Of a stretch of DNA of 64,000 nucleotides, positions 21,935 through 38,488 are shown in pieces. A model generated the notes under the pieces. That model saw nothing but the letters and a program-made list of their open reading frames with translations. It made no database searches and had not been told where the DNA came from. The DNA lies in assembly GCA_032159915.1 (NCBI GenBank), contig JAVHWH010000062.1, positions 145 to 64,144 on the forward strand, in the 5' to 3' direction. Each line of letters starts with the position of its first letter. The first letter of the stretch is position 1. This DNA is from Mycobacterium sp. Its GTDB lineage: Bacteria > Actinomycetota > Actinomycetes > Mycobacteriales > Mycobacteriaceae. A program made the translations under genes and the position numbers.

Positions 21935-21971
21935 TGCAGACGATTCGCAGGAATATTGCGAGTATTTCGCA
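21935..21971. promoter_or_regulatory. tandem Nur-like operator boxes upstream of nicT
   Basis: TGCAG-ACGAT-TCGCA (21935-21949) and TGCGA-GTATT-TCGCA (21957-21971). Confidence 0.7.
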
Positions 21972-22001
21972 GGTGAGTATCGAGTCCCCGAATTGCTCGG
22001 G

Positions 22002-23129
22002 TCAGCCCCGAAACGTGATGAGCGGAATTGCCATCTCAGCGGGCGTTGCCGCCCCGTGGAAGCCGACGAGCTGAGCGACTTCCGGTGGCTCGTGGGCGCT
22101 GGCCAGCACGGCCGTGTCAGCCAGACAGCTGACGACGACGTCGCCGATCCGCGGCAGGTGATGGGGTGGCACGTATCCGAAAAGCCCCGCCGCTACGGCG
22201 TCGTCGCGGGTTCGCACGTCGGCTCGCCCATCCAACAGCTCGCTCCAAACGGCAATCACATCGGAGGCCGCGCCCGGCGCGGTGTGCAGGTAGCGCACCC
22301 GCGGATCGCCGGCAACGACTCGCACACCGGCACTCAACCTCGAATCGGCGTCAAGATCGATCCGACGATGATCCGGCACGTTCAACCCGCCGTGGTCGGC
22401 GGTGATCAGCAGCGCGCCATCCGGCGGCAACGCCTCGACCAGTCGGGTCAGTAGTGCATCCACGTACGCCGCGGCGGCGTGCCACTCGGCGGACCCGATC
22501 CCGAATAGGTGTGCCGCGGTGTCGAGCGCGGCAGTGTAGGCATAGACCAGTCCAGGCCGTAATCGCATGTGATCAATGACGATCTGGGCGTAGTCGTCGT
22601 CGGGTCTGGCGGCCACGAATTGGGCGCCCCGGTACACCGCCTCGGTCAGGCCGCTGCCTTCGAAGGCCGCCGGCAGCACGGCGCGGGCACCGACGCCGGC
22701 TCGACGCAGTCGCTCGAACCACGTTGGGACGGGCTGCCATTGCTCAGCCGGCGGATCATCGCGCCACGCGATGTGGTTGAGCACCCATTCGGTTTCGGGC
22801 ACCTTGACGGTAAACCCCAAGACGCCATGCTCACCAGGTGCGACGCCGGTGCTCAACGATGCCAGGCTCGTCGGGGTGGTCGAGGGGTACGTGCAGGTGA
22901 GCTCGTCGAGCCGGCCGACACGACCGGCCAGCACCGAGGCCAGCAGCGGTGCATCGGCAGCCAATTCAGGTAGCAAGTGCCAACCCATACCGTCGACGAG
23001 CACGACGGCAACCCGGTGCACATTGCCGACCCACTCGGTCACTCGCAGCGCGTCGATTGCCCCGGACACTGACAACAACGCGGCCGCGGCGGGCAATACG
23101 TCGCAGATCGAACGCGACAAATCGGGCAC
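22002..23129 (-). CDS. alkaline phosphatase superfamily, nucleotide pyrophosphatase/phosphodiesterase
   Basis: VLVDGMG, TYPSTT (catalytic Thr), DTAAH, TADHG, GFHG. Confidence 0.88.
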   Translation of the reverse strand: MPDLSRSICDVLPAAAALLSVSGAIDALRVTEWVGNVHRVAVVLVDGMGWHLLPELAADAPLLASVLAGRVGRLDELTCTYPSTTPTSLASLSTGVAPGEHGVLGFTVKVPETEWVLNHIAWRDDPPAEQWQPVPTWFERLRRAGVGARAVLPAAFEGSGLTEAVYRGAQFVAARPDDDYAQIVIDHMRLRPGLVYAYTAALDTAAHLFGIGSAEWHAAAAYVDALLTRLVEALPPDGALLITADHGGLNVPDHRRIDLDADSRLSAGVRVVAGDPRVRYLHTAPGAASDVIAVWSELLDGRADVRTRDDAVAAGLFGYVPPHHLPRIGDVVVSCLADTAVLASAHEPPEVAQLVGFHGAATPAEMAIPLITFRG

Positions 23130-23223
23130 GATGCCAGTCTGACAGTCGCGCCGAATCGCGCGCTAGCGCACCCAATCCAGCCGTTGTCTGCCTTTCGACG
23201 ATCGACTGCGTGATACTGGCGGA

Positions 23224-23724
23224 GTGGCCAAGCCCTCGGCTTTGGATCCGGCCGTCAGCGAGCGGATCGGCGAGCTGCTACGCGCCCACGGGCTGCGCCG
23301 GATGGCCTCCCGGATCGCGGTCTTGGCGGTGCTCGAACCGGCCAACACGCACCTGTCCGTCGCCGACATCGATCAGCGGCTTCGCCAGTGTTTGCCCGCC
23401 GAAGGCCAGCCGCCGGATCTGGCGACGATCTACCGCACGGTGACCACCCTGCTCGACCAGGGTGTGCTGCACGCCTTATCCGTGGAGGGCGGGGTTACCA
23501 CGTATGGCCTGGCCGACGTCCCGCACCATCACGCGGTGTGCACGCGGTGCGGTTCCATCATCGAAGTGCCGGCCGGACATCTGGCCTCTGCACTCCAGCA
23601 TGCGATGGTCGGCAGTTCGTTCACGTTGTCCGAGAGCGCCGGCCTGACCCTGCATGGACTGTGCCCACAGTGCCAGGGAGACGTACCGAACGGTGCCGCC
23701 GAGGCGCCACCGCCACGACGCTAA
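23224..23724 (+). CDS. Fur-family metalloregulator (possibly Nur-like)
   Basis: LATIYRTV helix, HHHAVCTRC, GLCPQC. Confidence 0.92.
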   Translation: MAKPSALDPAVSERIGELLRAHGLRRMASRIAVLAVLEPANTHLSVADIDQRLRQCLPAEGQPPDLATIYRTVTTLLDQGVLHALSVEGGVTTYGLADVPHHHAVCTRCGSIIEVPAGHLASALQHAMVGSSFTLSESAGLTLHGLCPQCQGDVPNGAAEAPPPRR

Positions 23725-24458
23725 ACGTAGGCTAGCCGCTGATTTGTCAGGCGAAGTTGGCGGTCGGTGCTTTCGGCCAGCGCCTGGATCTGATCGGATT
23801 GCAACCGGCCGCACAGCCGACCCCAGTGCAGCGCAACCTCGTCGCCCGCCGCCACGTCCGGCATCGCACTGTACCCATCGGCCCACACGTCGAGTCGGCG
23901 CGCAGACGGCTGGGACAGCGTGAGGGCTCGACCATCCCAGGCCAGGCCTTGACACATCACATCGACCTGACCGCCGATGCGGGAAAGCACGCTGCCGCAA
24001 GTGATCCGGCAATTGTCCAATACACTCAGCGGCTGCTCGTCCATCCCGCGCCCTAAAAACCGAGTCCAGGGATAGACACCGAAGACATGGAAGCAGTGAT
24101 TGCCGGCCGCCTCGCGGGCCAAATCAGGGGTGAGGTGCGACCAGTAGTGGCCTGCCTGCGGGCCGATGATGGCCAGCAACGCATCGAAGAACTCGCGCGG
24201 GTCAAGGTTGGCGCCGACGCCCCCGCCCAGCCAATACGACTCGACAAGCCGGTGGTCGAGCGGATCGCTGATGCCGGTCATCTTGGCGAGCACCTGCAAG
24301 TAGGGCCAGGCCCCGGAAAACTTGGTCGCGGCCTTTCGAACCTCGTTGACCGAGCCGTCCCGCAACGTCGCGCCCAGTGGGGGACCGCAATAGCCCAGGG
24401 CGTTGGGCGCGTGGGCGTACCGAGCGAACATCTCGGCGCCGAGGCTCGCAGGGTCCAA
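23721..24458 (-). CDS. hydrogenase-associated DUF6390-like protein
   Basis: FARYAHAPNALGYCGP, HCFHVFGVYPW, C-terminal VALHWG; last gene of the hyp operon. Confidence 0.75.
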   Translation of the reverse strand: MDPASLGAEMFARYAHAPNALGYCGPPLGATLRDGSVNEVRKAATKFSGAWPYLQVLAKMTGISDPLDHRLVESYWLGGGVGANLDPREFFDALLAIIGPQAGHYWSHLTPDLAREAAGNHCFHVFGVYPWTRFLGRGMDEQPLSVLDNCRITCGSVLSRIGGQVDVMCQGLAWDGRALTLSQPSARRLDVWADGYSAMPDVAAGDEVALHWGRLCGRLQSDQIQALAESTDRQLRLTNQRLAYV

Positions 24459-24461
24459 CTG

Positions 24462-25601
24462 TCAGCCCCGCCTTGTTTGACTCACTAGCTTCGCTGCATC
24501 ACGATGCATGCGGCCGAAGTTGTAGTAGGCCGCGCATGCTCCCTCGGGTGACACCATGCAGGTGCCGATAGGCGTCTCCGGAGTGCAGGCGGTACCGAAA
24601 ACTTTGCATTCCCATGGCTTGAGCACACCTTTGAGCACCTCGCCGCACTGACACGCCTTGGGGTCGGCGACCCGCACGCCGGGCATCGAGAACCGGAGTT
24701 CGGCGTCAAACTCCGCGAAGTCGTCGTGCAGCCGCAGCGCACTCTGGGAGATGAACCCCAGCCCACGCCATTCGAAGTGCGGACGCAGGGCGAACACCCT
24801 TCCCATCAGCGCCAGCGCCGCAGGGTTGCCGTGCTCGGGCACTACTCGTTTGTATTGATTTTCCACCTCGCAACGGCCTTCTCGGATCTGGCGCAGCAGC
24901 ATGGTGACCGCCGCCAAAATATCCAGTGGCTCGAACCCGGCCACCACCAACGGCTTTCGGTATATCTCGGTCACGAACCGGTACGGCCGGTTGCCCACCA
25001 CGGTTGAAACATGCCCGGGACCGATGAAGCCGGACAGCCGCAGGTCCGGTGATTCCAGGATGGCTTTGATCGGCGGCACGATCGTGACGTGGTTGCAGAA
25101 CACACTGAAATTTCGCAGGCCAAGTTCGCGGGCACGGACCAGCGTCACAGCGGTCGACGGGGCAGTGGTCTCGAAGCCGATGGCGAAGAACACCACGTGC
25201 TTGTCGGGGTTGTCGACAGCAATCTTGAGCGCGTCGAGCGGGGAGTAGACGAACCGGACATCGGCACCGCGTGCCTTGGCGTCGAGCAGACTGCCTGCCG
25301 ACCCGGGCACCCGCATCATGTCGCCGAAACAGGTGAAGATCACGTCGGATTGGCCGGCCAGCCACATCGCGTCGTCGATACGTCCCATCGGGATCACGCA
25401 GACCGGACACCCGGGCCCGTGGACCAGTTCGACATTGTCAGGCAGTAGGTGTTCGATGCCGTGCCGGTAAATGGTGTGAGTGTGCCCGCCGCACACCTCC
25501 ATGAACTTGAAGTGGTCGGAGCCGCGTTTCGCCAGATTCTCGATGGCAGCCAACAGCTTGCGGGCCGCAGCCGGATCGCGGAATTCGTCAACAAATTTCA
25601 T
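24462..25601 (-). CDS. hypD: hydrogenase maturation protein HypD
   Basis: MEVCGGHT, GPGCPVC, GFETT, PGHVS, C-terminal Cys cluster. Confidence 0.98.
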   Translation of the reverse strand: MKFVDEFRDPAAARKLLAAIENLAKRGSDHFKFMEVCGGHTHTIYRHGIEHLLPDNVELVHGPGCPVCVIPMGRIDDAMWLAGQSDVIFTCFGDMMRVPGSAGSLLDAKARGADVRFVYSPLDALKIAVDNPDKHVVFFAIGFETTAPSTAVTLVRARELGLRNFSVFCNHVTIVPPIKAILESPDLRLSGFIGPGHVSTVVGNRPYRFVTEIYRKPLVVAGFEPLDILAAVTMLLRQIREGRCEVENQYKRVVPEHGNPAALALMGRVFALRPHFEWRGLGFISQSALRLHDDFAEFDAELRFSMPGVRVADPKACQCGEVLKGVLKPWECKVFGTACTPETPIGTCMVSPEGACAAYYNFGRMHRDAAKLVSQTRRG

Positions 25602-25612
25602 CGTCGCCTCCC

Positions 25613-25885
25613 TTAGACAATCGCCGACGAGTCGAAGGCCTCGACTTCGGTGGTGTAGGCCTCGCCGAGCTTTTTGACGGCGGCCAGGGTGAGCAACGCC
25701 TCAGTCTCGTCGATCTTCGCCATCGCGAAACCGACATGGACCAGCACCCAGTCGTCGGGCTCGGGCATGTCGCTTTCCAGCAACCGCACGCTGATCATGC
25801 GCTGTACACCGCTGACGTCTACCTTTGCCAAATAATTGGCGGGATCAATGACCTCAACGATCCGACCCGGAATTCCAAGGCACAT
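25613..25885 (-). CDS. hypC: HypC/HybG/HupF chaperone
   Basis: MCLGIPG start, DWVLVHVGFA. Confidence 0.95.
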   Translation of the reverse strand: MCLGIPGRIVEVIDPANYLAKVDVSGVQRMISVRLLESDMPEPDDWVLVHVGFAMAKIDETEALLTLAAVKKLGEAYTTEVEAFDSSAIV

Positions 25886-25905
25886 CGACGATCTCCTCCT
25901 CTTGT

Positions 25906-25950
25906 GTGACGACCCGCTGCACCCGGCTCCGCCGCGCTTGCGATCGCCAC
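25906..25950 (-). repeat. mycobacterial palindromic interspersed element between hypE and hypC
   Basis: GTGGCGATCGC-AAGCGCGGCGGAGCCGGGTGCA-GCGGGTCGTCAC imperfect stem-loop. Confidence 0.55.
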
Positions 25951-25956
25951 GTCAGC

Positions 25957-27069
25957 TCAGCAGATTCGCGGCAGTGGGTCGCCGACGAGCATGTCGACGA
26001 TCCGGGTGCCGCCGAATCCGGTACGTAGGACGACGGTTTCAGACGGTTCGGTGACGATTTCTCCGACCTCGGCCGCATCGGCGCCCAGCGGATGCGAGCG
26101 CAAGGCGGCCAGCCCGACGTCAGCCTCCTCGGGTGCGACGACGGCGACGAACTTGCCCTCGTTGGCGACGTAGAGGGGATCAATGCCGAGCAGCTCGCAC
26201 GCGCCATTGACCATGGGCCGCACGGGCAGTCGCTCCTCTTCCAGCAGCACCCCCAGGCCGCAGGCCTGAGCCAATTCGTTGCAGACGGTCCCGACCCCGC
26301 CTCGGGTGGCGTCCCGCAGCCACCGCGTCGATGGCGCGGCTGCCATCAGCAGTTCCACCAGCGGGCTCAAGCAGGCCGTGTCGGAATGGATGTCGGCCTC
26401 GATGGCCAAGTCGCCCCGGGCCAGCATCACCGCCATGCCGTGATCACCCATGGAACCTGACAACAGCACCTTGTCACCCGGGCGTATCGACGCGGTCGAA
26501 AGTTTGCGTCCCGCCGGAACGACGCCGACTCCGGTGGTGGTGACGAACATGCCGTCGGCGGCCCCCTTGGGCACCACCTTGGTGTCGCCGGTGACGATCT
26601 GCACACCCGCGTTGGCCGCCGCAGCGGCCATGTCGGCGACGATGTCCTTCAATTCGGCGATCGGAAAACCCTCTTCCAACACAAATGCCGCCGAGACCCA
26701 AGACGGCACCGCACCGGACATGGCGACGTCGTTGCACGTGCCGTGCACTGCGAGCTGCCCGATGGAACCGCCGGGAAAACGTCGGGGCTGCACCACAAAT
26801 GAATCAGTGGACATCGCCAGCCGCTCGCCGCCGGGCAGGGTGAGGACCGCCCCGTCGCCGAGTGACTCGAGCAGCGGGTTGCGGAATGCCTCCATGAACA
26901 CCGCGTCGATCAGCGCGGCCGAGGCCTTGCCGCCCGCTCCGTGCGCCAAGTTCACATGGTCGTCGAGCAACCGGGGGCGACGCCTTCGGAACGACTCGAT
27001 CCGTTCGATCACCTCGCCCTCGGCAAACCGCGGACCCGACGACAAGTATTCACCGGCTGGCTTGGTCAT
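25957..27069 (-). CDS. hypE: carbamoyl dehydratase HypE
   Basis: AHGAGGK, TDSFVV, GDTKVV, RDATRGG, C-terminal PRIC. Confidence 0.97.
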   Translation of the reverse strand: MTKPAGEYLSSGPRFAEGEVIERIESFRRRRPRLLDDHVNLAHGAGGKASAALIDAVFMEAFRNPLLESLGDGAVLTLPGGERLAMSTDSFVVQPRRFPGGSIGQLAVHGTCNDVAMSGAVPSWVSAAFVLEEGFPIAELKDIVADMAAAAANAGVQIVTGDTKVVPKGAADGMFVTTTGVGVVPAGRKLSTASIRPGDKVLLSGSMGDHGMAVMLARGDLAIEADIHSDTACLSPLVELLMAAAPSTRWLRDATRGGVGTVCNELAQACGLGVLLEEERLPVRPMVNGACELLGIDPLYVANEGKFVAVVAPEEADVGLAALRSHPLGADAAEVGEIVTEPSETVVLRTGFGGTRIVDMLVGDPLPRIC

Positions 27070-27740
27070 GCGGCCCCCAATCCTCGATCGTCGGACCGTT
27101 GCTGGGTGGCTGACCACAGCTGGTAGCCCAGCAACGCTTGCGATTCCTGAATCCGGTGCACGCTTTGCGAGCGAACGGTGAAGCAGGCGTCCACGTTTGG
27201 ATTGTTGGTGAAGGCGCCGCCGTCATAGCCGGCGAAGCCGACGGTGTACATACCGCGTTGTCGCGCCTCGGCCAGCGCGGCCAGCAAGTTGGCTGAATTG
27301 CCGCTGGTCGACATGGCGATCGCGATGTCACCGGCCTTGGCGCGGGCGATCAACTGCCTGGCGAACACCAGCTCGAACCCGACGTCGTTGCCCAGCGCGG
27401 TCATAATCGCCTGATCGGCGGTCAACGACCATGCGGGTAGCGGCTTGCCGGCCGGCGGGCGGGAGAACAAAGCGGCCAAGGTGGTGGAATCGGTGCAGCT
27501 GCCGCCGTTTCCGAAGGTGAACAGCCGGCCGCCGGCCGCGAAGCGGCGCGCCATCTCGGTACCAGCCTGCTCCAACAACTCGGCGCTGGCGGCCAACGTG
27601 GTGCGCCGCAGTGCCATGCTCTCGGCGGCCTTCGCCTGCGCTGACGCGGCGAGATCGGCAAGCAGCGATCGCGGGTCTTCCTCCTGTGCATCGATGAACG
27701 GATACAGGAAGTTGGTGGGCTCTTCGCCGGCGCGTTCCAT
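27066..27740 (-). CDS. SIS-domain GmhA-like protein
   Basis: FGNGGS, TALGNDVGF, STSGNS, RIQE. Confidence 0.85.
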   Translation of the reverse strand: MERAGEEPTNFLYPFIDAQEEDPRSLLADLAASAQAKAAESMALRRTTLAASAELLEQAGTEMARRFAAGGRLFTFGNGGSCTDSTTLAALFSRPPAGKPLPAWSLTADQAIMTALGNDVGFELVFARQLIARAKAGDIAIAMSTSGNSANLLAALAEARQRGMYTVGFAGYDGGAFTNNPNVDACFTVRSQSVHRIQESQALLGYQLWSATQQRSDDRGLGAA

Positions 27741-28456
27741 CAGAGGTCCTCCTCGAGGCGAATGATCGCCGTCCCGGCGTGCACCAGGACCAGCTCGCCG
27801 GCGGCGACCGGGTCGATCAGCGCCGTCACCACCTTCTCGACGCCCCGCGCCGTGCGCACCGCGGCCATCCCGTCGGCCGACGGCGACACCACCTCACCGA
27901 TGCGTCCCTCGTCACTGCACGTGACGCAAACTTGTTCGGATGATTCGGGATTGAGCAGTCCGGAGTGCTCGAAGCACACATGGGTCAGTTCCCATAACAG
28001 GTGATAAAACAGCACGAAGCCGCCGGTCGCCGGTATACGCGGGTCGGGGTCGTCGAGCCACAGCACGTGATCGGCTCCACCCGCGGTGGGCCGTTCCCCG
28101 CTGCCGATCCAGATTGTGGTGGCGCCCCAGGCCGGGCTGCGGCGCATCACCGAACGCAGGTCGAGGTCAGCGGCGGCGCCCACCCCGATTACGATGTCGC
28201 CGGGCTGCACCGAAACCCGCACCAAATCAACGAGATTCGGTCCGGTCAGCGCGACGGCCGGCAATGCGCGCTTTCCCATGATCACCGGATGCACGAACTC
28301 GACCGCGATGTGCATCGCATGGGGCTCCGACGACGGCGCAATGGACCACATAGTGGCCCCCGCCGCGAACCGCTTGGCCAGGGTGAAGGCACTCGCGGCC
28401 AAATCAGCGGCAAGCTCGTCATCAAGCCCACGGTCGATCGCAGTCATGGTCGTCAC
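27740..28456 (-). CDS. degenerate SIS domain fused to a C-terminal HypC-like domain
   Basis: HIAVEFVHP...ALPAVAL, then CVTCSDEG...GELVLVHAGTAI. Confidence 0.75.
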   Translation of the reverse strand: MTTMTAIDRGLDDELAADLAASAFTLAKRFAAGATMWSIAPSSEPHAMHIAVEFVHPVIMGKRALPAVALTGPNLVDLVRVSVQPGDIVIGVGAAADLDLRSVMRRSPAWGATTIWIGSGERPTAGGADHVLWLDDPDPRIPATGGFVLFYHLLWELTHVCFEHSGLLNPESSEQVCVTCSDEGRIGEVVSPSADGMAAVRTARGVEKVVTALIDPVAAGELVLVHAGTAIIRLEEDL

Positions 28457-30789
28457 GACTCAGCCTCTTCCAGCGCCGTCAACACGGAGATCGCGGCCTG
28501 CCCCAGCGCCAGCCCGCCGTCGTTTGGTGGCACTATGTGATGGGTCAGCACCGTGAATCCGGCTCGCTGGAGGCGTTCTCGGCACAGCCGCAGCAGCAGT
28601 ACGTTCTGGAAAGCCCCGCCGGTGAGGCCTGCCAACCGCACCGGCCCGGCGACCATGTGCACCGCTTCGACGACGGCGACCGCGACCGCCCGGTGGAATT
28701 CGGCGGCGAGCACCGCCGGTGGCACACCTGCGCGCAGGGCTGACACCATTTCCCGCAGCATGCCGGCGGGGTCGATCACTCCGTCGGGGTGTACGGCCAG
28801 TCTCAGGTGCGGGCCCGGCGTGTCGCCGATCGAGTCGGCGAGCGCCTCGAGTTCGATGGCGGCCTGGCCTTCGTAGTCGATCCGGTGCCGCACGTCCAGC
28901 AGCGATGCGACTGCGTCGAACAGGCGCCCCATGCTCGAGCACGGCACGCAGCCCGTGTTGCTCTCCAATTGTGAACGGGTCAGGCGCAATTCGGCCGGCG
29001 TCGCGGCAGTCACCGGATGTAAATCCGGTGTCCAGTCGATTCCGGCCATCCACAAATGAGACAGCGCCATCCGCCACGGATTGCGCACGGCCGCATTACC
29101 TCCCGGCAGCGGCACCGCCAACAGGTGGCCGGCCCGGACAAACCGGTGACTGTCAGGGCCGAGCTTGAGAATCTCGCCGCCCCAGATCGTCTGATCGCAG
29201 CCATAACCGGTTCCGTCGAACGCAACTCCGATAATGGGTTCGCCGATGCGCTCGTGCTCGGCCAGCAGCGAGACCACATGGGCGTGGTGATGCTGAATCA
29301 GATCGAGTGGCCGATCGCCGGCACGGCGCTCCGCCCAACTGCGGGTGTGATACCCGGGATGCAGGTCGGCGGCCAATCGCACCGGCTGGTGGCGGATTTC
29401 ACTGAGTTGGCCCACCGCTCGTTCGAATGCCCGCAGGGTTTCGAGCGTCTCCATGTCACCGATGTGCCCGGACAGGTATGCGCGTGCACCGTCGGTCAGG
29501 CAGAAGGTGTTCTTCAGTTCGCCGCCGACCGCCAGCACCGCTGGGCCGTCGCGACCGAGGTCGACGGGCAGCGGCGCATAGCCGCGGGACCGCCGGATCG
29601 GCAGTTCACGATCGTCGACAACCCGTACCACTGAGTCGTCGCAGGGCACATGAATAGGCCGGTCGTAGTCGAGCACCGCGTCGCTTAATAATGGAAGACG
29701 TTGCAGAGCATCGGCTTCGGTGAAGCAGATGGGCTCATCGCAGCGGTTGGCGCTGGTCAGCACCAAGCCATCGGGTGCCGGTAGATCGACACCTGGAACC
29801 GGCGCGAGCAGCAGGTGGTGGATCGGCGAGTACGGCAGCATCAACCCGATCAGCGGGCTGCCTGGTGCGACGGCGTCGGCGAGCGGCGCATTGCGGAGGC
29901 GCCGCAGCAGCACGATGGGCCGCGCGGCACTGGAGAGCACCGCGGCTTCGGCGTCGTCGACGTGTGCGTAGCTGCGCGCGATGTCTAGATCCCGCACCAG
30001 GACGGCGAAGGGCTTGGCGCGCCGTGCTTTACGGGCCCGCAGCGCACCGACCGCTGCCTCGTCGTCGACCCGGCATGCCAGGTGATAGCCACCGATGCCT
30101 TTGATTGCGACAACGGCGCCCGCGGCCAGCACCTGCTGGGTGGCCCGCAGCGCGGCATCGGTTCCTTCGACCCGCCCGTCCTGCGCGGCGAACCACAGCC
30201 TCGGCCCACAGCCCGGGCAGGCGATCGGCTGCGCGTGGAAGCGGCGGTTGGTGGGATCGTGGTATTCGGCGGCGCAGCGTTCGCACATGCTGAACGCCGA
30301 CATCGTGGTGGCCGGTCGGTCGTAGGGCAGGGCACGGATGATGGTGAACCGGGGACCGCAATTAGTGCATGTCACAAAGGGGTGGCGGTAGCGGCGATCC
30401 TTCGGATCGAATAATTCGGTGATGCAGTCGGCGCAGATGGCGATGTCGGGCGGAATCGGGGTGGTGGCACCGGCGGCGGGTTGGCTTTCCACGATGCGAA
30501 ACCCATTGTCACAGCGCGTGTCAGCGTCGACGTCGACGACCCGGACAGCACGGATGGCCGCCAATGGTGGCGCATCTGTGCGCAGCCGGCGACGGAATTC
30601 GTCAATGCGTGCGCCAGGCCCCTGCACTTCGAGGAAGACCGCGCCCGAATCGTTGCCGACAAATCCGTTCAGTCCCAGCTCGGTGGCGATCCGGTGGACG
30701 AACGGACGGAACCCCACGCCCTGAACGACACCGGTGACGGTGAACCGTTGCCGGACGGTGTTGGACAGCACCAGCGTGTCAGTCATCAT
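28453..30789 (-). CDS. hypF: carbamoyltransferase HypF
   Basis: GVVQGVGFRPFV acylphosphatase motif, CxxC zinc fingers, QHHHAH, PPNDGG. Confidence 0.98.
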   Translation of the reverse strand: MMTDTLVLSNTVRQRFTVTGVVQGVGFRPFVHRIATELGLNGFVGNDSGAVFLEVQGPGARIDEFRRRLRTDAPPLAAIRAVRVVDVDADTRCDNGFRIVESQPAAGATTPIPPDIAICADCITELFDPKDRRYRHPFVTCTNCGPRFTIIRALPYDRPATTMSAFSMCERCAAEYHDPTNRRFHAQPIACPGCGPRLWFAAQDGRVEGTDAALRATQQVLAAGAVVAIKGIGGYHLACRVDDEAAVGALRARKARRAKPFAVLVRDLDIARSYAHVDDAEAAVLSSAARPIVLLRRLRNAPLADAVAPGSPLIGLMLPYSPIHHLLLAPVPGVDLPAPDGLVLTSANRCDEPICFTEADALQRLPLLSDAVLDYDRPIHVPCDDSVVRVVDDRELPIRRSRGYAPLPVDLGRDGPAVLAVGGELKNTFCLTDGARAYLSGHIGDMETLETLRAFERAVGQLSEIRHQPVRLAADLHPGYHTRSWAERRAGDRPLDLIQHHHAHVVSLLAEHERIGEPIIGVAFDGTGYGCDQTIWGGEILKLGPDSHRFVRAGHLLAVPLPGGNAAVRNPWRMALSHLWMAGIDWTPDLHPVTAATPAELRLTRSQLESNTGCVPCSSMGRLFDAVASLLDVRHRIDYEGQAAIELEALADSIGDTPGPHLRLAVHPDGVIDPAGMLREMVSALRAGVPPAVLAAEFHRAVAVAVVEAVHMVAGPVRLAGLTGGAFQNVLLLRLCRERLQRAGFTVLTHHIVPPNDGGLALGQAAISVLTALEEAES

Positions 30790-31024
30790 CGCTGCTCCGG
30801 CCGATCAGCTCCAGACCCGTCATCGCCTGTTCGGCGCCGGTTTGGTCGGTCTTCTCGACGGCGAAGCCCATGTGGATGATCACCCAGTCACCGGGTGCCA
30901 ACGTTTCCTCCACCAACATGCCGACATTTACCTTGCGTTGCTTTCCGGCAACGTCGACCAGTGCGAGCTGGCCCTCGTAACCGTTCAGCATGCTGACCAC
31001 TTGGCCCGGTATGCCCAGACACAT
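30779..31024 (-). CDS. hypC: second HypC/HybG/HupF chaperone
   Basis: MCLGIPG start, GDWVIIHMGFA. Confidence 0.93.
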   Translation of the reverse strand: MCLGIPGQVVSMLNGYEGQLALVDVAGKQRKVNVGMLVEETLAPGDWVIIHMGFAVEKTDQTGAEQAMTGLELIGRSSDDD

Positions 31025-31027
31025 CGT

Positions 31028-31522
31028 TCAGCCCTGCCCTTCGACCGATGCCGCCGGCGATCGAGTCCGCAGTCCCGCGACGAGCTTCTCGACAGCGTCG
31101 ATGGCTCGTGGCACCGCGGCCGCGACGGCCTCGGTAAGGCCGATACCTTCGTCAACGCTTCCGACCTCGCAGCCGACGACGACCGTGTAGGGCGGTGCGC
31201 CGCCGAGTGCCTTCAGGCTGTCGAACACCGCCGCGGGATCCATGCTGTGGGCATCCAGACCGGTTGTGGCGGAATCTGATCCATGGTCAGCCTCGAAGAC
31301 GTGTAGGGCGCCCGGGCACCCGCGGCTCGGTATCGCGTCGACGAGGACCAGCGCATCCCAGTCGTCGAGCAAGTCGTAGGCCAAGTGCATGCCCCCGATG
31401 CCGTAGTCGACCACTCGCGCACCCGCGTTGCCCTGCTGGACTGCGACGCGCCGGACTACCTCGGAGCCGAACCCGTCGTCACCGAGGAATATGTTGCCGA
31501 TGCCGGCTACCAGGATGGGCAC
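31028..31522 (-). CDS. hydrogenase maturation endopeptidase (HyaD/HupD family)
   Basis: GIGNIFLGDDGFG, VDA, DAH. Confidence 0.94.
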   Translation of the reverse strand: MPILVAGIGNIFLGDDGFGSEVVRRVAVQQGNAGARVVDYGIGGMHLAYDLLDDWDALVLVDAIPSRGCPGALHVFEADHGSDSATTGLDAHSMDPAAVFDSLKALGGAPPYTVVVGCEVGSVDEGIGLTEAVAAAVPRAIDAVEKLVAGLRTRSPAASVEGQG

Positions 31523-31544
31523 TGAAACCGTGGGTCCGTCGAAA

Positions 31545-31664
31545 CTACATGTGCCGGATCTTCAGGTACCGCCGCGCGTCCGGCAGCGATATCAGCCCTA
31601 CCACAACTCCGGCCAGCGCGAGTAGTCCCAGAAGGCCGATAAACACCCATCCTACGATTGCCAT
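31545..31664 (-). CDS. 39-aa single-TM protein (DUF6893-like)
   Basis: MAIVGW...hydrophobic stretch...SLPDARRYLKIRHM; AAGGGA RBS. Confidence 0.75.
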   Translation of the reverse strand: MAIVGWVFIGLLGLLALAGVVVGLISLPDARRYLKIRHM

Positions 31665-31666
31665 CT

Positions 31667-32995
31667 TCAATTCCCTTCTATAGCAATGATTTCGAGTGGT
31701 TCCACTTCGTCGGGCGAGAAGTACAGGTAGCGGCCGTACCACTCGTGTAAGTCGGCAGCCGGATCGTCCTCGACGACAACACCGACGTGCTGGTTGCCGT
31801 CGACGTCTTCGTGCACCGAGGTGACGCGAGCCGTCTTCTCCGCAAAGAAAAGGTCTTGTGCGTCTGCCCGACGTGACGGATGCAGAAGCACTCGACTACC
31901 CCTTGCCACCCGGACACCATTTATCAGGACCGCATCCAGGTCGGGTTGTACCGCGTTGTCGGCTAACGGATCCCACCAATCAACGCCGTCGGGAATTTCG
32001 GGAATCAGATTCTCGGGCGCCCGTGGATCCCGCAGGGCACCGTGCAGGCGCGACATAGCCTCGGGCGACATGGCATCACAGCGGTCAATGATCTCCGCGG
32101 CCCGCGGGTCGGTGGCCCTGGCCTCAGCCTTCTCCCGGTCCGTCATGGTCATCACCCGCAGGGTCAGGATTTCGTCGATCTCGGTGCAGTCGTATAACGC
32201 GGTTTCGCTCTGTTCGGCGACCTCGGGGTGGTCGTAGAGGATGATCGGGGAGATCAGCAGCAAATCTTTGGCGCCCGCCGCGCCAGCCAGCACCGGGAAA
32301 CAACGGTGCCGGCTGCATCGAGACACCGCGTCGACGGCATTGCGCGGCGGCTCGAGGAGCGAGACGAACTGGCCATCAATGGCTTCTGCGATGACATGGG
32401 TGCCGATCAAGGATCGCGCGATCGCTTCATCCTTGTCTGCAGCAGGTTTACCTACGTTGGTAATGCATACCGATACCCGTTGCAGCGGGCCCTCTGGCTC
32501 GATGCGTATGGTCAAGCGAGCGTTCACCTCTCGCCGGTCCCGTATGAGCCGACCGCCTTCGACTGGTTCGACGCTGGTTGACCCGGCGGCGGTCAACGAC
32601 AAGGTCCATGGCTGACCCGAATCGTCGAGTGCGAAAGGGCCAAAGGATTCCTCGTGTTCGACCGCTTCGTCCCACGTCAGCCATGAACCGGACGATGTGA
32701 CCAGTTCGTCGACGGGTTCGAAGCTCCCGACGCCGGTGTCGCGCTCGGGACGGCGGTGTTGCAGTTGCAGGAACCGCACCACCAGGGTGATCGCCTGCGC
32801 CCCGTCGACGAGAAATTGCGCTGCGATGGTGTCGTCTTCGCCGATTCCGGCATCGGCCGCACCGGCCGGGCCCAGAACACCCCATTGCCAACGGGATTGG
32901 TTTCTGCTCGACGTCGCCCGGTATGGGTAGAGCAGGTAGCCCTCGTACAGGACGGCGTCGGCGACGGCGCGGGCCCGGTCCCAATCGGCGGTCAT
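31667..32995 (-). CDS. conserved hypothetical hydrogenase-associated protein
   Basis: ADAVLYEGYLLYPY, SPIILYDHP, EIDEILTLR; ATGA-coupled to the upstream gene. Confidence 0.8.
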   Translation of the reverse strand: MTADWDRARAVADAVLYEGYLLYPYRATSSRNQSRWQWGVLGPAGAADAGIGEDDTIAAQFLVDGAQAITLVVRFLQLQHRRPERDTGVGSFEPVDELVTSSGSWLTWDEAVEHEESFGPFALDDSGQPWTLSLTAAGSTSVEPVEGGRLIRDRREVNARLTIRIEPEGPLQRVSVCITNVGKPAADKDEAIARSLIGTHVIAEAIDGQFVSLLEPPRNAVDAVSRCSRHRCFPVLAGAAGAKDLLLISPIILYDHPEVAEQSETALYDCTEIDEILTLRVMTMTDREKAEARATDPRAAEIIDRCDAMSPEAMSRLHGALRDPRAPENLIPEIPDGVDWWDPLADNAVQPDLDAVLINGVRVARGSRVLLHPSRRADAQDLFFAEKTARVTSVHEDVDGNQHVGVVVEDDPAADLHEWYGRYLYFSPDEVEPLEIIAIEGN

Positions 32996-33654
32996 CGCGC
33001 CTCCTGGCGTGCGGCGTCCAGCAGCGCGGTGACCGCGTCCTCGATGCTCAACAGACCGCGCGTCGATTTGTAGGCGGCCAACGCGGTGATCGTGTCGTGG
33101 GACAGGCGCACCCATCCGGTCTCGGGATAATGCTGTCGGATCAGCTCCCGCCACACCGCTACCGGCATGTCGTAGCGGTCCTCGCAGTCCCACGACACCT
33201 GCTGAACGGAGAAGCCGCGTTCGCCCGACGTGAAAACCGTTCCGCTGAACAAGAATTGCAGTGGCATGGCACCGTCACGCAGCGCATGCAGGTACTTGGC
33301 GGCGGCAACCTCGAAATCGTAGGTGCACTCCAGAGGCAGCGTCATTTCGGTAGCGTGGACGAACGCTGGCACCATCGCTGTGCAGTGCTGCCACAAAAAC
33401 GTACGTTGGGTGGTGGCCCAGCGCTCCCGCGGCCCGAACAAATCACTCAGCCCCGCCGCTTCGGAGTCGGAATAGCCGCGTCGCAAAGGTTCGATGCGGA
33501 CCTGGCAGCGCAGCGCGATTGCCTGCACCGGTTCGTGGTCGGGCGCCGAAACACGGATGCGCGCGGTCAATACCGGTGCAGCCGCGTAGGGCTCGGGGAC
33601 CACGTCGAGGACGGTGAACACCAAGCCGGTCGCCTGGGCGGTGGGCTCAGCCAT
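32992..33654 (-). CDS. DUF6084-like hydrogenase-associated protein
   Basis: LRCQVRIEP, CTYDFEVAAAKY, FLFSGTVF. Confidence 0.78.
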   Translation of the reverse strand: MAEPTAQATGLVFTVLDVVPEPYAAAPVLTARIRVSAPDHEPVQAIALRCQVRIEPLRRGYSDSEAAGLSDLFGPRERWATTQRTFLWQHCTAMVPAFVHATEMTLPLECTYDFEVAAAKYLHALRDGAMPLQFLFSGTVFTSGERGFSVQQVSWDCEDRYDMPVAVWRELIRQHYPETGWVRLSHDTITALAAYKSTRGLLSIEDAVTALLDAARQEAR

Positions 33655-33718
33655 GAGCTCCGCTCCTCCTGCCCTGCTCGGATCGCACTGCCCTGTTGAT
33701 CGTCGCCGGCGCGGTCAT
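33647..33718 (-). repeat. MIRU element containing a 23-aa coupling mini-ORF
   Basis: ATGACCGCGCCGGCGACGATCAACAGGGCAGTGCGATCCG...GAGGAGCGG; overlaps both neighbours. Confidence 0.85.
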
Positions 33719-34341
33719 CGACACTGCTCCACACTGCGGTCAGCGAGCTGATCGAAGAAGGCGGCGATGAACTCGCGCGCCTCCTGGCCGCCGTCGAAGC
33801 CACGCCACAGCATCCGCAATCCACCGATGAACTCGTAGCACGCGTCGATGGGTACCAGATAGCAATCGGGCTGCTCGTCCCCGCGCACTCGCACCAGCAG
33901 CGCCTCGACGTCATCGGCGAGCAGGCCCACTCGGTGGTCGGCCGAATTGATCGCGGTCCACGCGTCGAGGTCGAGATCGGATTCGGTTGCGCCCGCAGGC
34001 CCCGGGTAGAACGCGACGGTGCGATCCAGCGCGGAGTTGCGGAAGAAGAACGCCAGACCGACCGGGATCTGCAGTGCCTCCCACGTGCGGCGATCAAGCG
34101 CGAAGTTGGGAAATGACAGATACCGGTCCGGAACCGAGCGGTAACGCAGTTGCGCGTGGCTGTCGGTGAACAGCAGATAGCAACCGCGGCACACGCACAG
34201 TAGTTGCCGGCCCGCCACATTCACCACATGCTGGTGCTCATCGGCGATCGCCTCCGAGCACATTTCGCACCGCTCTCCGGCCGGTTGCGGTGCCCGCCGA
34301 TTGCTGGTGATTCGGCTCAGGACGTCGTAGGGAGTGGTCAT
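33715..34341 (-). CDS. DUF5947-like protein with N-terminal CxxC motifs
   Basis: CEMC...HQH...CVCRGC, YPGPAGATES. Confidence 0.8.
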   Translation of the reverse strand: MTTPYDVLSRITSNRRAPQPAGERCEMCSEAIADEHQHVVNVAGRQLLCVCRGCYLLFTDSHAQLRYRSVPDRYLSFPNFALDRRTWEALQIPVGLAFFFRNSALDRTVAFYPGPAGATESDLDLDAWTAINSADHRVGLLADDVEALLVRVRGDEQPDCYLVPIDACYEFIGGLRMLWRGFDGGQEAREFIAAFFDQLADRSVEQCR

Positions 34342-34406
34342 TTGCGCCGCTCCTCCTGCCCTGTTCGGATCGCATCGCCCTGTTGATCGTCGCCGGCGCG
34401 CGTCAT
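34338..34406 (-). repeat. MIRU element containing a 22-aa coupling mini-ORF
   Basis: ATGACGCGCGCCGGCGACGATCAACAGGGCGATGCGATCCG...GAGGAGCGGCGCAAATGA. Confidence 0.85.
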
Positions 34407-35347
34407 GCCGGCGCGCCCATCGGCTCGGCCGGTACCGCGATGGACAGCACGCCATCGCGCAGTAGCAGGGGGATGGGATCGAGGTGTCGCGGGAGGCCGT
34501 CGTCGAGACTCGCCCCGGCGTGTACGACGTCGAAATGCGCCCGACAGCGGGGACATCGCAACACTGGCTCAGCGGTGCCCACCCGTCGGTGCAGGGCGGC
34601 GCCGGCCATGGATCCGTCGCAGGCCGGGCAGTGGTCGCGATAGGCGTACAACTGGTCGCCGACCCGGCAAGCCAGCACCATGACGCCGGCAACCGAGAAG
34701 CCGCCGACTTCGCCGGGAGCCAGGTCGGCCAAATCGGGCAGCGGATGCCAGGTCGCCGCTTTGCCGCCGTTGGCGTGACCTCTGGCATGGACTTGAGCCA
34801 GCAGCGATTCCGCCGGGATGACCGTCGTCGGCTCAGCTGGCGCGGCTTCGGGGGCGACCACCTCGATCGACGAAACCTCCGGTGCGGCAGCGCGAATCGC
34901 ATCCTCCACCGCCAGCTCCAGCGTCACAGCCGACGACGGGCAACTCTTGCAGCTTCCGGCGAACTGAAGCTTCACGGTATCGCCGTCGATGTCGAGCAGA
35001 TGCACGTCGCCACCGTGCGAGCCCAGATACGGCCGGACCCGGTCGAGTGCGTCGGAGACCCGGCGACGCACGTCGTGGGGGTGCAGTCCATGCACGAGCA
35101 GAAGGCTGGCTACCAAGTCGTCGGCGATCAGGGAGTTCAGCATGGCGGTGTCCGCCCGAGCGCCGAGTGCCGCCATTACCCGCGACAAGGCCGCGCCGTA
35201 GAGTTCGACGACCTCGCCAACCAACTGCTCGGCGCGCTCACGCGCGACCGTCCCACCGGCCGACGTCGCATCCAACAGCGTCTGGATCCGATCGCCCGCC
35301 GAGCGCCACAGCGCATCCCCCGCCAGCTCCTCGAGGCGATCAGCCAT
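34403..35347 (-). CDS. hhyE: NifU-like plus Rieske-like Fe-S protein (HhyE-like)
   Basis: VRPYLGSHGGD...GSCKSC NifU motif; C-terminal CPAC...CPRC; directly after the large subunit. Confidence 0.8.
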   Translation of the reverse strand: MADRLEELAGDALWRSAGDRIQTLLDATSAGGTVARERAEQLVGEVVELYGAALSRVMAALGARADTAMLNSLIADDLVASLLLVHGLHPHDVRRRVSDALDRVRPYLGSHGGDVHLLDIDGDTVKLQFAGSCKSCPSSAVTLELAVEDAIRAAAPEVSSIEVVAPEAAPAEPTTVIPAESLLAQVHARGHANGGKAATWHPLPDLADLAPGEVGGFSVAGVMVLACRVGDQLYAYRDHCPACDGSMAGAALHRRVGTAEPVLRCPRCRAHFDVVHAGASLDDGLPRHLDPIPLLLRDGVLSIAVPAEPMGAPA

Positions 35348-35350
35348 ACA

Positions 35351-37150
35351 TCACTCCCCGGTCGCCGCTTGTGTCGGTGAGTGCAGCCGCTCCAGTGTCT
35401 TGCCCCCACCGAGGTACATGTGCACACCACAGGGCAGGCACGGGTCGAAGCTGCGCACCGTGCGCATGATGTCGATGCCCTTGAAGTGCTCCCGATCGTT
35501 CTCCTCGAAAATCGGCTGTCCCTGCACGGCGTCTTCGTAGGGACCCGGCGTGCCGAAGCTGTCGCGCGGGTTGGCATTCCACGGGGTGGGCGGATAGGGA
35601 TGGTAGTTGGCGATCTTGCCGTCCCGAATCACCATGTGGTGGCTGAGCACTCCGCGAACGGCCTCGGTGAAGCCGCAGCCGATGCCATCCTTGGGCACGT
35701 CGAACTTCTCCCACGTCTTGGTGCGCCCAGCCCGTATCTCGACCAGTGCTTTTTCGGCGAAGTGCAACGCGCACGCCGCTGCATAGGCCTGAAAGTAGGT
35801 CCTCGCTCTGTCGCGCTCGATCGTGTTGGACCCGCGCTCAGGAATTTTCCATTCGAACTCGACCGGCCCTTTCAGAGCGGTCTTCGGCAGGTTGATCTGG
35901 ACCGAATGCCCGGTGGACTTGACGTAGCCGACGTCGACCAGACCGGCCAGCGCGGTCGACCAGAGCCGGGCCAGCGGGCCGCCGCCGGTGTCGAGAGCCA
36001 GGTGGTCCTTGCCGTCGAACCAGCGCGGAGACATCACCCAGCTGTAATTGCCGCCGTCCATGTCGCGTTTCTGCGGATGCGGGTTGGTGTGTTGGTTCCA
36101 CGGGTGCCGCCGGTCCACCGGATTACCCAACGGATCGGTTTTGACGAACATCTCCTGTTCGTTCCAGTCGTCGTAATACGAACTGCCCAACAGGATCCGG
36201 ATACCCAGGTTGATGTCGACCAGCGATGTGGTGACCAGCTTGCCGTCGACGACCACGCCGGGCGTGACGAACATTTTGCGGCCCCACTGCTCCATGTCCT
36301 TATATTCGAAGTTGCAGTACTCCGGGTCCTGGAAGGAGCCCCAGCAGCCCAGCAGCGTGCGCCGCAGACCGACGTTCTCGTAACCCGGTAGCGCCTCGTA
36401 GAAGAAGTCGAACAGGTCGTCGTGCATAGGGACGACCTTCTTCATGAATTCGACATAGCGCATCAGCCGACTCATGTAGTCGGTCATCAGCTGGATGGTC
36501 GCCACCGTGCCGACGCCACCCGGGTACAACGTGGACGGGTGCACGTGCCTGCCCTCCATGAGGCAGAACATCTCCCGTGTGTAGCGGCTGACTTGTAACG
36601 CCTCGCGGTAGAACTCGCCGCTGAACGGATTGAGCGAGCGCATGATGTCGGCGATCGTCTTGTACCCGTGCGCGTCGGCATGCGGCGCCCGGGTGTTCTC
36701 GGCTTTCGCGAGCACACTGGGGTTGGTCTCGGAGACCATCTTCTCGCAGAAGTCCACACCGACCAGATTCTCTTGAAAGATGTTGTGGTCGAACATGTAT
36801 TCCGCAGCCTCGCCCAGGTTGACGATCCACTCACCCAGATGCGGAGGCTTGACGCCGTACGCCATGTTCTGCGCATAGCATGAGCAGGTGGCGTGGTTGT
36901 CACCGCAGATGCCGCAGATGCGGCTGGTGATGAAGTGCGCGTCGCGCGGATCCTTCCCCTTCATGAAGATCGAGTAACCGCGGAAGATCGACGAAGTGCT
37001 ATGACACTCAACGACTTCACGGTTCTCGAAGTCGATCTTGGTGTAAATGCCGAGGCTGCCGACGATCCGGGTGATCGGATCCCAGGCCATCTCGACGAGT
37101 TGGCCGGGCTCGCGCTTCGCGTGGGACGGCTCGGGGATGATCGTTGTCAT
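35351..37150 (-). CDS. hhyL: group 1h [NiFe]-hydrogenase large subunit
   Basis: L1 TSRICGICGDNH, L2 SFDPCLPCGVH, cleavable C-terminal extension. Confidence 0.95.
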   Translation of the reverse strand: MTTIIPEPSHAKREPGQLVEMAWDPITRIVGSLGIYTKIDFENREVVECHSTSSIFRGYSIFMKGKDPRDAHFITSRICGICGDNHATCSCYAQNMAYGVKPPHLGEWIVNLGEAAEYMFDHNIFQENLVGVDFCEKMVSETNPSVLAKAENTRAPHADAHGYKTIADIMRSLNPFSGEFYREALQVSRYTREMFCLMEGRHVHPSTLYPGGVGTVATIQLMTDYMSRLMRYVEFMKKVVPMHDDLFDFFYEALPGYENVGLRRTLLGCWGSFQDPEYCNFEYKDMEQWGRKMFVTPGVVVDGKLVTTSLVDINLGIRILLGSSYYDDWNEQEMFVKTDPLGNPVDRRHPWNQHTNPHPQKRDMDGGNYSWVMSPRWFDGKDHLALDTGGGPLARLWSTALAGLVDVGYVKSTGHSVQINLPKTALKGPVEFEWKIPERGSNTIERDRARTYFQAYAAACALHFAEKALVEIRAGRTKTWEKFDVPKDGIGCGFTEAVRGVLSHHMVIRDGKIANYHPYPPTPWNANPRDSFGTPGPYEDAVQGQPIFEENDREHFKGIDIMRTVRSFDPCLPCGVHMYLGGGKTLERLHSPTQAATGE

Positions 37151-37189
37151 CGAACTGTGCTCCCTAGTTTCAAGCTGAATTCGTGCGCA

Positions 37190-38245
37190 CTACCAAGTGC
37201 GGCGAGCGCCCGTGGTGAGTGTGTCGCCCTTGTGTCGCCAGCGCGGTTCCTTATCGACGGTGCGCCCGGTGATGTGACGCAGGTTGCGAATGACCCCGCC
37301 GTACAACCCCGACGCGGCGGTCGAGACCTTGCCGCCCGGCGGCTCGTCCATGAACGGCATGAACTTGTCCGGGAAGCCCGGCATCGTGCAGCCGATGCAG
37401 ATCCCGCCGACGTTCGGGCACCCACCGATGCCGTTGATCCAACCTCGCTTGGGCACATTGCATTTGACCACCGGCCCCCAGCAACCCAGCTTCACAATGC
37501 ATTTCGGTGATCCGTACTCGGTGGCGAAGTCACCCTGCTCGTAGTAACCGGCCCGATCACACCCCTCGTGCACGGTTTGGCCGAACAACCACTGTGGGCG
37601 CAGCGCGTCATCAAGCGGGATCATCGGTGCCTGGCCGGTGGCCATGTAGAGCAGATAGGTCAGCGTCTCCGACAGGTTGTCCGGATGGATCGGGCAGCCC
37701 GGGACGCACACGATCGGGATTCCGGCCTTGCTCTTCCATTCCCAGCCCAGGTAGTCGGGGACGCCCATCGCGCCGGTCGGGTTGCCGGCCATTGCGTGGA
37801 TGCCGCCATAGGTGGCGCACGTTCCCACCGCGACCACCGCGGTTGCCTTGGGTGTCAATCGGTCAAGCCACTCACTGGTGGTCATCGGCTGCCCGGTCGC
37901 CGGGTTGTTGCCGAACCCACACCAGTACCCCTCGTCCTTGATCGCCTCGTTGGGAATCGAGCCCTCGACCACCAGGACGAACGGCTCCAGCTCGCCACGA
38001 TCGGCCTTGAAGAACCACTCGAGGAAATCGTCCGCGCCCCCATTGGGCCCGCATTCGAAATCGATCAGCGGCCAGTGCACGGCGACCTTCGGCAGCCCGG
38101 GAAGCGCGCCCAGCGCGATCTCCTCGACACTGGGTTGGGTGGCGGCAGTCAACGCCACCGAATCGCCGTCACAACTGAGACCCGCGTTGATCCACAGAAC
38201 GTGAATCAATGTTTCTTCCGCTTTGACTGCTGCTTCTGTTGGCAT
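37190..38245 (-). CDS. hhyS: group 1h [NiFe]-hydrogenase small subunit
   Basis: LSCDGD proximal motif, GTCATYGG, PGCP, HEGC, distal Cys cluster; no Tat leader. Confidence 0.94.
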   Translation of the reverse strand: MPTEAAVKAEETLIHVLWINAGLSCDGDSVALTAATQPSVEEIALGALPGLPKVAVHWPLIDFECGPNGGADDFLEWFFKADRGELEPFVLVVEGSIPNEAIKDEGYWCGFGNNPATGQPMTTSEWLDRLTPKATAVVAVGTCATYGGIHAMAGNPTGAMGVPDYLGWEWKSKAGIPIVCVPGCPIHPDNLSETLTYLLYMATGQAPMIPLDDALRPQWLFGQTVHEGCDRAGYYEQGDFATEYGSPKCIVKLGCWGPVVKCNVPKRGWINGIGGCPNVGGICIGCTMPGFPDKFMPFMDEPPGGKVSTAASGLYGGVIRNLRHITGRTVDKEPRWRHKGDTLTTGARRTW

Positions 38246-38448
38246 GCCGCAGCTTCCCGGGGCCGCGCGTTGACCCCTACGCTGCCGGAGTCGACTTTCG
38301 GCCCGCTTACGCGGCGCTATTCCTGGGTCTACTCCCGCTGAACAGCCTTGTCAACGATTCATCGACAACCCGGAGATCTGGTACGGGCTCTCGGATTTCG
38401 GTGTTCTCCGCTGCGTATGGGGAGTAGTCTGCACGGCGCCGAGAGTCC

Positions 38449-38488
38449 TGCGAATCATTTGCATCTATTGTCCTGCAATCGGTTTGCA
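38449..38488. promoter_or_regulatory. tandem Nur-like operator boxes upstream of hhyS
   Basis: TGCGA-ATCAT-TTGCA (38449-38463) and TGCAA-TCGGT-TTGCA (38474-38488). Confidence 0.65.

Follow-up and report, generated by a model that had tools for sequence, protein, structure and literature searches.

The stretch of DNA analysed here, referred to as the window, is 64,000 nucleotides long and comes from Mycobacterium sp. (assembly GCA_032159915.1, contig JAVHWH010000062.1, positions 145 to 64,144 of the forward strand). It carries nicT, which encodes a nickel permease, hhyS and hhyL, which encode the subunits of a [NiFe]-hydrogenase, and a gene for a Fur-family regulator, called fur below. Four short palindromic boxes of the form TGCRA-N5-TYGCA, two upstream of nicT and two upstream of hhyS, are predicted operators of this regulator. 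The host genome is 4.06 Mb and 83% complete, which bounds the genome-wide box counts. The genes, the boxes and the predicted promoters are the following:

20754..21872, reverse strand: nicT, NiCoT-family nickel permease (NF052500, 612.7 bits, over the cut-off; TIGR00802; PF03824)
21911..21916, reverse strand: predicted nicT -10, TAGCGT, at the conserved TAnnnT position
21934..21939, reverse strand: predicted nicT -35, CTGCAA, the promoter-side half of box 1, with a 17-nt spacer to the -10
21935..21949, no strand assigned: box 1, predicted promoter-proximal nicT operator (one mismatch; 24.2 bits with a matrix partly trained on box 1)
21957..21971, no strand assigned: box 2, predicted distal nicT operator (exact; 23.1 bits; 22-bp period to box 1)
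23224..23724, forward strand: gene of the Fur-family regulator, the predicted cognate factor (by PF01475, residues and tree)
35351..37150, reverse strand: hhyL, [NiFe]-hydrogenase large subunit (PF00374; 1087 bits to PDB 5AA5 HofG)
37190..38245, reverse strand: hhyS, hydrogenase small subunit (profile matches)
38326..38354, reverse strand: predicted hhyS promoter, -35 TTGACA at 38354-38349, 17 nt, -10 TAGACC at 38331-38326
38449..38463, no strand assigned: box 3, predicted upstream hhyS operator (exact; 27.5 bits, the best matrix match of the genome)
38474..38488, no strand assigned: box 4, predicted second upstream hhyS operator (exact; 18.6 bits; 25-bp period to box 3)

A preliminary description of this DNA had reported four 15-bp palindromes, one of them with a mismatch, in two tandem pairs with periods of 22 and 25 bp, and a 14/16 match of the reverse complement of the first box with its flank. 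All four lie where it placed them, the single mismatch is in 21935-21949, and the periods and the 14/16 match are correct. The distances hold as well: the boxes stand 63-99 bp from the nicT ATG (21872) and 204-243 bp from the start of hhyS (38245). This ATG is the likely start of nicT, and the longest open reading frame, from 21908, begins upstream of the predicted transcription start. Profile matches uphold the gene calls for nicT (NF052500), the Fur-family gene (PF01475, 61 bits) and the hydrogenase subunits. The sole PDB match of hhyL at E<=1e-60 is 5AA5 HofG, and the enzyme is taken to be the group 1h hydrogenase.

The box motif is not enriched in the window, where 9 matches with at most one mismatch stand against 9.4 expected (shuffle mean), so the case for the boxes rests on their conservation in relatives. 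The whole genome has 8 exact and 295 one-mismatch matches; three of the 8 exact ones are in the window, and no pairs within 60 bp exist besides the nicT pair and the hhyS pair. A Poisson estimate gives 1.4 such pairs genome-wide at up to one mismatch and 0.04 for pairs within 30 bp that include an exact member. A matrix was trained on the 30 closest loci, with 40 boxes taken from the regions before their nicT genes, and used with a cut-off of 12 bits; its core is TGC(A/G)a-N5-t(C/T)GCA, and it is circular for those nicT sites, not for hhyS. In the genome-wide scan, which had been proposed as a check, the four boxes are the top four matches, and the next best (<=17.6 bits) fall inside long open frames. 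A wider regulon in this genome is rejected on these weaker matches and on a second NiCoT gene that has no box (G000 contig C139, 1432-2457, reverse strand, 52% to nicT). As far as the 83%-complete assembly shows, the regulon consists of two promoters.

Across more than 130 loci the half-sites are conserved, while the central bases and the flanks vary. Boxes are found before nicT and hhyS in relatives, and they are confirmed by this comparison as conserved across Mycobacterium and genuine. The tandem pairing, present at both promoters of the window, is lineage-specific and not general. Multi-box nicT loci have a first-to-last spacing of 22-23 bp in 48 of 53 cases; 64 of the 77 box-bearing hhyS loci have one box and 13 have two, with pairs at 24-26 bp.

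At nicT, a TAnnnT element lies 18-19 nt past the box end in 70 of 80 box-bearing upstream regions. This fixed geometry from box to -10 indicates that the box half-site is the nicT -35, and its overlap with the -35 makes repression of nicT by the bound protein, through box 1, likely. Autoregulation in the window genome was rejected, as no box precedes fur, a gene 1.25 kb from the boxes; in divergent loci, no -10 is conserved between the box and fur.

The survey of the genus covers 400 scored Mycobacterium genomes. An orthologue of the regulator (53-99% identity) is present in 141, hhyS in 252 and a NiCoT gene in 264; 137 of the 141 regulator-positive genomes have a NiCoT gene and 122 have hhyS, and the regulator is read as primarily a nickel-uptake regulator. 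Named carriers include M. kansasii, M. gastri, M. intracellulare, M. celatum, M. kyorinense, M. fragae, M. cookii and M. botniense. In 401 genomes sampled across the class, strong matches do not go beyond the genus; a single homologue, 42% identical and from another family, adjoins nicT and has a box of 19.5 bits. The common layout in relatives is fur and nicT diverging from the box, then hypA and hypB directly downstream of nicT, then a box, the promoter, the hya RNA motif and hhyS. In the window lineage the hydrogenase block is found across fur from nicT, and fur is parted from the nicT boxes by a phosphodiesterase gene.

The boxes follow the regulator gene at both promoters. Among 80 full-length nicT loci, 61 have both Fur and box, 2 have Fur without box, none has a box without Fur and 17 have neither. 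The label changes 11 times on the nicT tree, and all six independent pairs agree (p~0.03). Two Fur-negative genomes (G042 and G122) have a decayed nicT box at the usual place (11.6 and 10.0 bits), and a further 68 nicT loci from named genomes, partly overlapping with the first set, have the box in 66. For hhyS (n=126) the counts in the same order are 74, 8, 3 and 41, and the three loci with a box and no Fur are from genomes 73-91% complete and are nested among, or resemble, Fur-positive loci. With the nicT-trained matrix at 12 bits, the 5-kb region preceding hhyS includes a box in 39 of the 40 loci linked to Fur and in none of 37 Fur-negative genomes, chosen mostly by completeness among 150 hhyS matches listed. 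In a set of 75 metagenome hhyS loci the box is confined to the 5 that head the list (94-96% identical). The box is also retained by nicT genes unlinked to fur (G010, G186 and the second copy in G208) and by hhyS genes 62-240 kb from fur (G340, G117, G184, G155), so the regulator would act in trans. Divergent paralogues (53-54% identity) come with a box before cbiMQO-type Ni/Co transporters (G379, tandem at 23 bp; G002, second copy). In loci L162 (1661-4499) and L145 (5961-10282) the paralogue is beside cbiM-Q-O with the box at the cbiM promoter, and L145 also has copper genes and an ArsR gene. Thus, of the shared regulon first proposed for nickel uptake and hydrogenase, the linkage of both boxed promoters to the Fur gene stands across genomes, and its hydrogenase part is present only in some lineages.

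Several side observations concern hhyS loci that have lost or lack the box. A frameshifted hhyS (L150, G049) and an hhyS without hypB (L179, G255) have lost the hhyS box and kept fur and the nicT box. Two hypA/hypB lineages (hypB identity ~80-90% versus 47-51%) precede near-identical hhyS genes; the divergent type (L066, L069, L070 and 25 similar loci) is without the box in 28 of 28 cases, which points to module exchange. The box-less loci L052, L040 and L044 have a different conserved-looking motif, GAAATTGACGCGC, upstream of hhyS, which suggests another regulator.

The hhyS promoter is distant from its boxes. TTGACA is found 107-137 nt before the hhyS start in 126 of 126 loci, with or without a box; a generic sigma-70 scan did not call this promoter, and generic promoter scans yielded nothing. 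The box centre is 45-214 bp upstream of the -35 across loci and 102 bp in the window. A second promoter overlapping the hhyS boxes was rejected, as no TAnnnT lies at a fixed offset on either side. The box is often 15-75 bp past the hypB stop. Where hypB has moved away or is absent (the window, G117, G078, G113, G155, G180, G108), the box is still found 230-360 bp in front of hhyS. The distance from box to -35 has a period of 11.3-11.4 bp (11.35 bp with R 0.42 and p=0.012 on 39 distinct values), and when kin are merged p is <0.001 for 46-75 clusters. The control distance, from the hypB stop to the -35, gives R 0.20 at the 11.3-bp period. The phase set beforehand also fits 14 new loci (z=2.8; z=1.9 for 11 distinct values), and a 10.5-bp period does not fit (R<=0.18). 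Helical repeats of 11.08-11.60 bp per turn are given for lac loops in vivo in Table 1 of PMC1762422. Action at a distance from one face of the helix, by looping, is suggested at hhyS. The hhyS regions have no second matrix match at a fixed place near the promoter. About 25 bp upstream of the hhyS -35 a palindrome-like RACAnnTGTY recurs in many relatives (L113, L114, L120, L123 and L133, for example), at roughly the position of an activator, and could be a partner site for a loop; the window lineage has a different inverted repeat there.

The regulator matches PF01475 with 61.2 bits (cut-off 23.1). Its AlphaFold model (pLDDT 68) supports the Fur fold only, and all top fold matches of the model are Fur-family structures. 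The window genome has three Fur proteins, which are Zur, FurA and this regulator. FurA and Zur are encoded at separate loci (L001, L002), beside genes whose open reading frames read as katG and smtB. Identification of the regulator as mycobacterial FurA or Zur was rejected, since orthologues of both are at these other loci and only 25-26% identical to it.

Residues were mapped to Nur through a Nur-like protein aligned to 3EYY and through Streptomyces-type Nur orthologues. Invariant in 119 of 119 homologues are H43, H83, H101, H102, H103, E114 and four cysteines in two CxxC motifs; the HxH and CxxC...CxxC elements are H101, H103, C106, C109, C147 and C150. The equivalents of Nur H33/H88/H90 and E101 are likewise invariant in all 119. 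Of the Nur M-site, which is made of His33, His86, His88 and His90, H43, H101 and H103 are kept here, the column of the preceding histidine of Nur holds P100, and the H81 equivalent is G95. The PDB search ranks Nur 3EYY 18th of 23 with 30.9 bits, below several Fur, Zur and PerR entries. The proposed tree with Nur, Zur and FurA (29 rows) was built and puts the regulator clade outside the Nur clade (97/95) and apart from the Nur-like proteins (branch 91/97); it carries long-branch warnings, and the AU test does not reject sisterhood with Nur (p=0.22). Membership in the Nur group was rejected on the missing Ni-site ligands, the weak 3EYY match and the separate branch. The regulator is best described as a mycobacterial Fur clade distinct from Nur, FurA and Zur, which is predicted to work like Nur without membership in that group.

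In the model built on these sequences, their conservation and co-occurrence, the promoter geometry and the invariant residues, a metal-loaded dimer would bind TGCRA-N5-TYGCA. At nicT the bound box at the -35 would block RNA polymerase and nickel import would stop; in the common layout of relatives, the hypAB chaperones would be repressed along with nicT. At hhyS the bound box would act on an independent promoter across a DNA loop or bend. The boxes are very probably operators of the adjacent Fur-family protein, and the sensed metal is probably nickel. The model as a whole, in which a predicted nickel sensor probably represses nicT and, from a site far upstream, probably governs hhySL as well, is held with moderate confidence. 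For the sign at hhyS, activation when nickel is available is slightly preferred, repression is a possibility of lesser weight, and the lack of any direct effect is unlikely. The broadest form would be a Fur subfamily that senses nickel without the Nur Ni-site, recognises a Nur-type box all the same, represses import at the -35 and activates the hydrogenase for atmospheric H2. The operator for this activation would resemble an enhancer, lying 4-19 helical turns upstream with spacers that keep a ~11.3-bp phase from species to species; this is put forward tentatively, as somewhat unlikely in full.

A number of points weigh against the model. The regulator is missing from 130 of the 252 hhyS genomes, which limits the hydrogenase link to some lineages. 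Six of the 17 Fur-negative nicT loci (L200, L201, L202, L204, L206, L209) have mtr directly against nicT, which points to a probable joint deletion of fur and the promoter and leaves these loci uninformative on binding; nicT may now use the mtr promoter. The hypB+hhyS tree gives about 2 of 5 informative independent pairs (p=0.5), and independent hhyS contrasts are few because the loci without a box group into a small number of clades. The hhyS box is missing from eight Fur-positive genomes, of which four belong to the divergent hypAB lineage, one has a frameshifted hhyS, one has no hypB, one has fur without nicT and one is unexplained. The phasing weakens to p=0.06 with 34 clusters (65% identity) and p=0.10 with 19 clusters (60%), and the 14 new loci are kin of the first set. 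Activation of hhyS is not a given, since NikR represses hydABC in the account of PMC3177205. Finally, the Nur Ni-site H70/H72/H126 is A84/S86/G140 here (S86 is T or A in most homologues), so nickel specificity is unreadable from the protein and cobalt is possible. Each of the three histidines is essential for DNA binding by Nur as described in PMC2691836. A review treats this site as a possible crystallisation artefact (PMC7055735), which would make its loss compatible with nickel sensing at the common site.

That same absence is the first argument for cobalt, or for Ni and Co alike, as the signal of the same regulator and boxes, with a site made of the common Fur M-site plus H83/H102. The targets of the paralogues are transporters of the CbiM/CbiQ family, assigned to cobalt uptake by Pfam, and cobQ is ~5.5 kb from nicT within the window. 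Against cobalt, the second target is a NiFe hydrogenase, hypA and hypB follow nicT in many loci, NCBIfam names the permease 'Nickel transporter NicT', and Nur is described to bind the related nikMNOQ promoter in a nickel-dependent way (PMC2691836); cobalt is an unlikely signal. About as unlikely is that Fur controls nicT while the hhyS box is a leftover, or stops read-through from nicT-hypA-hypB as a roadblock or insulator, and does not control hhyS directly. The place of the box often shortly after the hypB stop, the lack of a TAnnnT at constant spacing to either side and the few independent contrasts would fit this; it is opposed by a box that stays before hhyS without a neighbouring hypB, by a spacing that is periodic to the -35 (R 0.42) and not to the hypB stop (R 0.20), and by box 3, the strongest site in the genome.

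Still less probable is another transcription factor, gained and lost with the locus, that binds the boxes beside a Fur gene which is a mere neighbour. Binding of the boxes by the Fur protein is a prediction, and the gene and the nicT box are physically linked, which makes joint loss easy. The motif is nevertheless a known Fur-family (Nur) box, and box and Fur homologue occur together at three kinds of targets and in other actinomycete families. No regulator other than fur is among the window genes that served as queries, the fur-nicT gap of ~130-230 bp in many relatives leaves no room for another gene, and FurA and Zur homologues are in nearly all genomes, box-less ones included. Chance palindromes in a GC-rich genome, which the window count equal to the shuffle mean and the 1.4 loose pairs expected would allow, are ruled out by conservation: the half-sites are kept against a variable centre and flanks, the position at nicT is fixed and the boxes are absent from Fur-negative genomes.

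The regulator shares features with several known metal sensors. As the preliminary description had stated, the motif is like the Streptomyces Nur box, with the same 6-5-6 arrangement tTGCaa-N5-ttGCAA (PMC2691836). Nur of S. coelicolor (3EYY) is also a Fur-family protein with two CxxC motifs and the H33/H88/H90/E101 residues found here as equivalents, and it represses nickel importers, binding the nikA and nikM promoters (PMC2691836). The regulator differs from it in lacking H70/H72/H126 and the H81/H86 equivalents, in its own invariant H83 and H102, in its branch apart from the Streptomyces-type Nur clade, and in its predicted targets, a NiCoT permease and a hydrogenase instead of sodF, nikA and nikM. 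Nur activates sodN indirectly, through a small RNA (PMC11672702), and a Frankia nur is placed elsewhere (PMC4531530). Nur-like proteins of other actinomycete families (L219, L226, L228, L233 and L244, for example) also adjoin nicT, several with TGCRA-N5-TYGCA-like boxes. They are ~33-37% identical to the window protein and differ from it by keeping HxH and H126; the one searched against the PDB matches 3EYY best (86.9 bits), and the fetched loci contain no hydrogenase structural gene.

NikR of Helicobacter pylori is a single nickel sensor with direct control over both a NiCoT permease, nixA, which it represses, and nickel enzymes, and its activation sites are upstream of promoters (PMC3177205). 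It is of the NikR family and not Fur, is pleiotropic, and activates urease (ureAB) while it represses hydABC (PMC3177205). Zur of S. coelicolor, which acts on znuA and zitB, belongs to the Fur family too, shuts down uptake and switches on another gene through boxes that precede its -35 (PMC5472717, PMC9371925); it responds to zinc, its activated gene is an exporter, its box is different, and the window genome has its own Zur. FurA, Zur, NmtR and KmtR are metal sensors of the same genus, of which NmtR and KmtR are ArsR-family proteins. The review PMC7055735, in its available part, lists NmtR among de-repressors of export and names no mycobacterial nickel-uptake repressor. A survey of Fur proteins in Actinobacteria has only two Fur groups for mycobacteria in its Table 1, and its available text mentions neither hydrogenase nor Nur by name (PMC2464607). 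The earlier statement that no such circuit is described for mycobacteria holds in that no paper on the regulator or the circuit was found, in a search with subscription journals mostly outside. Control of nickel enzymes and a permease by one nickel sensor is familiar from NikR and Nur; new here are the subfamily with its own metal ligands, the hydrogenase as a predicted target and an operator that is distant and apparently phased.

Soil actinobacteria take up atmospheric H2 with high-affinity hydrogenases, whose expression is linked to carbon limitation (PMC4109961); the main text of that paper never mentions nickel. The locus supplies a regulator, predicted operators and a promoter, which makes nickel gating of hydrogenase transcription directly testable. 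If the model is right, a nickel-uptake repressor would be added to a genus whose nickel sensors listed in the review are all ArsR-type (PMC7055735), and under the activating reading nickel supply would gate the scavenging of trace gas by soil mycobacteria directly at the level of transcription. A regulator without the Nur Ni-site tests the claim that the 6-5-6 box needs that site (PMC2691836), and the 11.3-bp phasing, if it holds, would preserve in natural sequences across the genus a trace of a Fur protein acting from a distance.

The other features of the locus are:

22002..23129, reverse strand: phosphodiesterase-family gene (PF01663, Pfam), between the boxes and fur
23721..35347, reverse strand: hydrogenase maturation and accessory genes (DUF6390, hypD, hypC, hypE, SIS protein, hypF, protease, DUF6084, DUF5947, NifU-like)
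38247..38318, reverse strand: hya RNA motif (Rfam RF02992), hhyS leader (76.7 bits, gathering score 56.8)
39315..40442, reverse strand: hypB and hypA, nickel chaperones (profile matches)

In relatives the phosphodiesterase gene is missing or downstream of nicT, and it is therefore placed outside the circuit. An open reading frame at 38729-39196 on the forward strand, which encodes 155 residues of an acidic, Gly/Pro-rich protein with no Pfam match, is a divergent insert between hypB and the hhyS boxes. The hya RNA motif RF02992 occupies the hhyS leader directly after the predicted -10 and would be a second layer of control.

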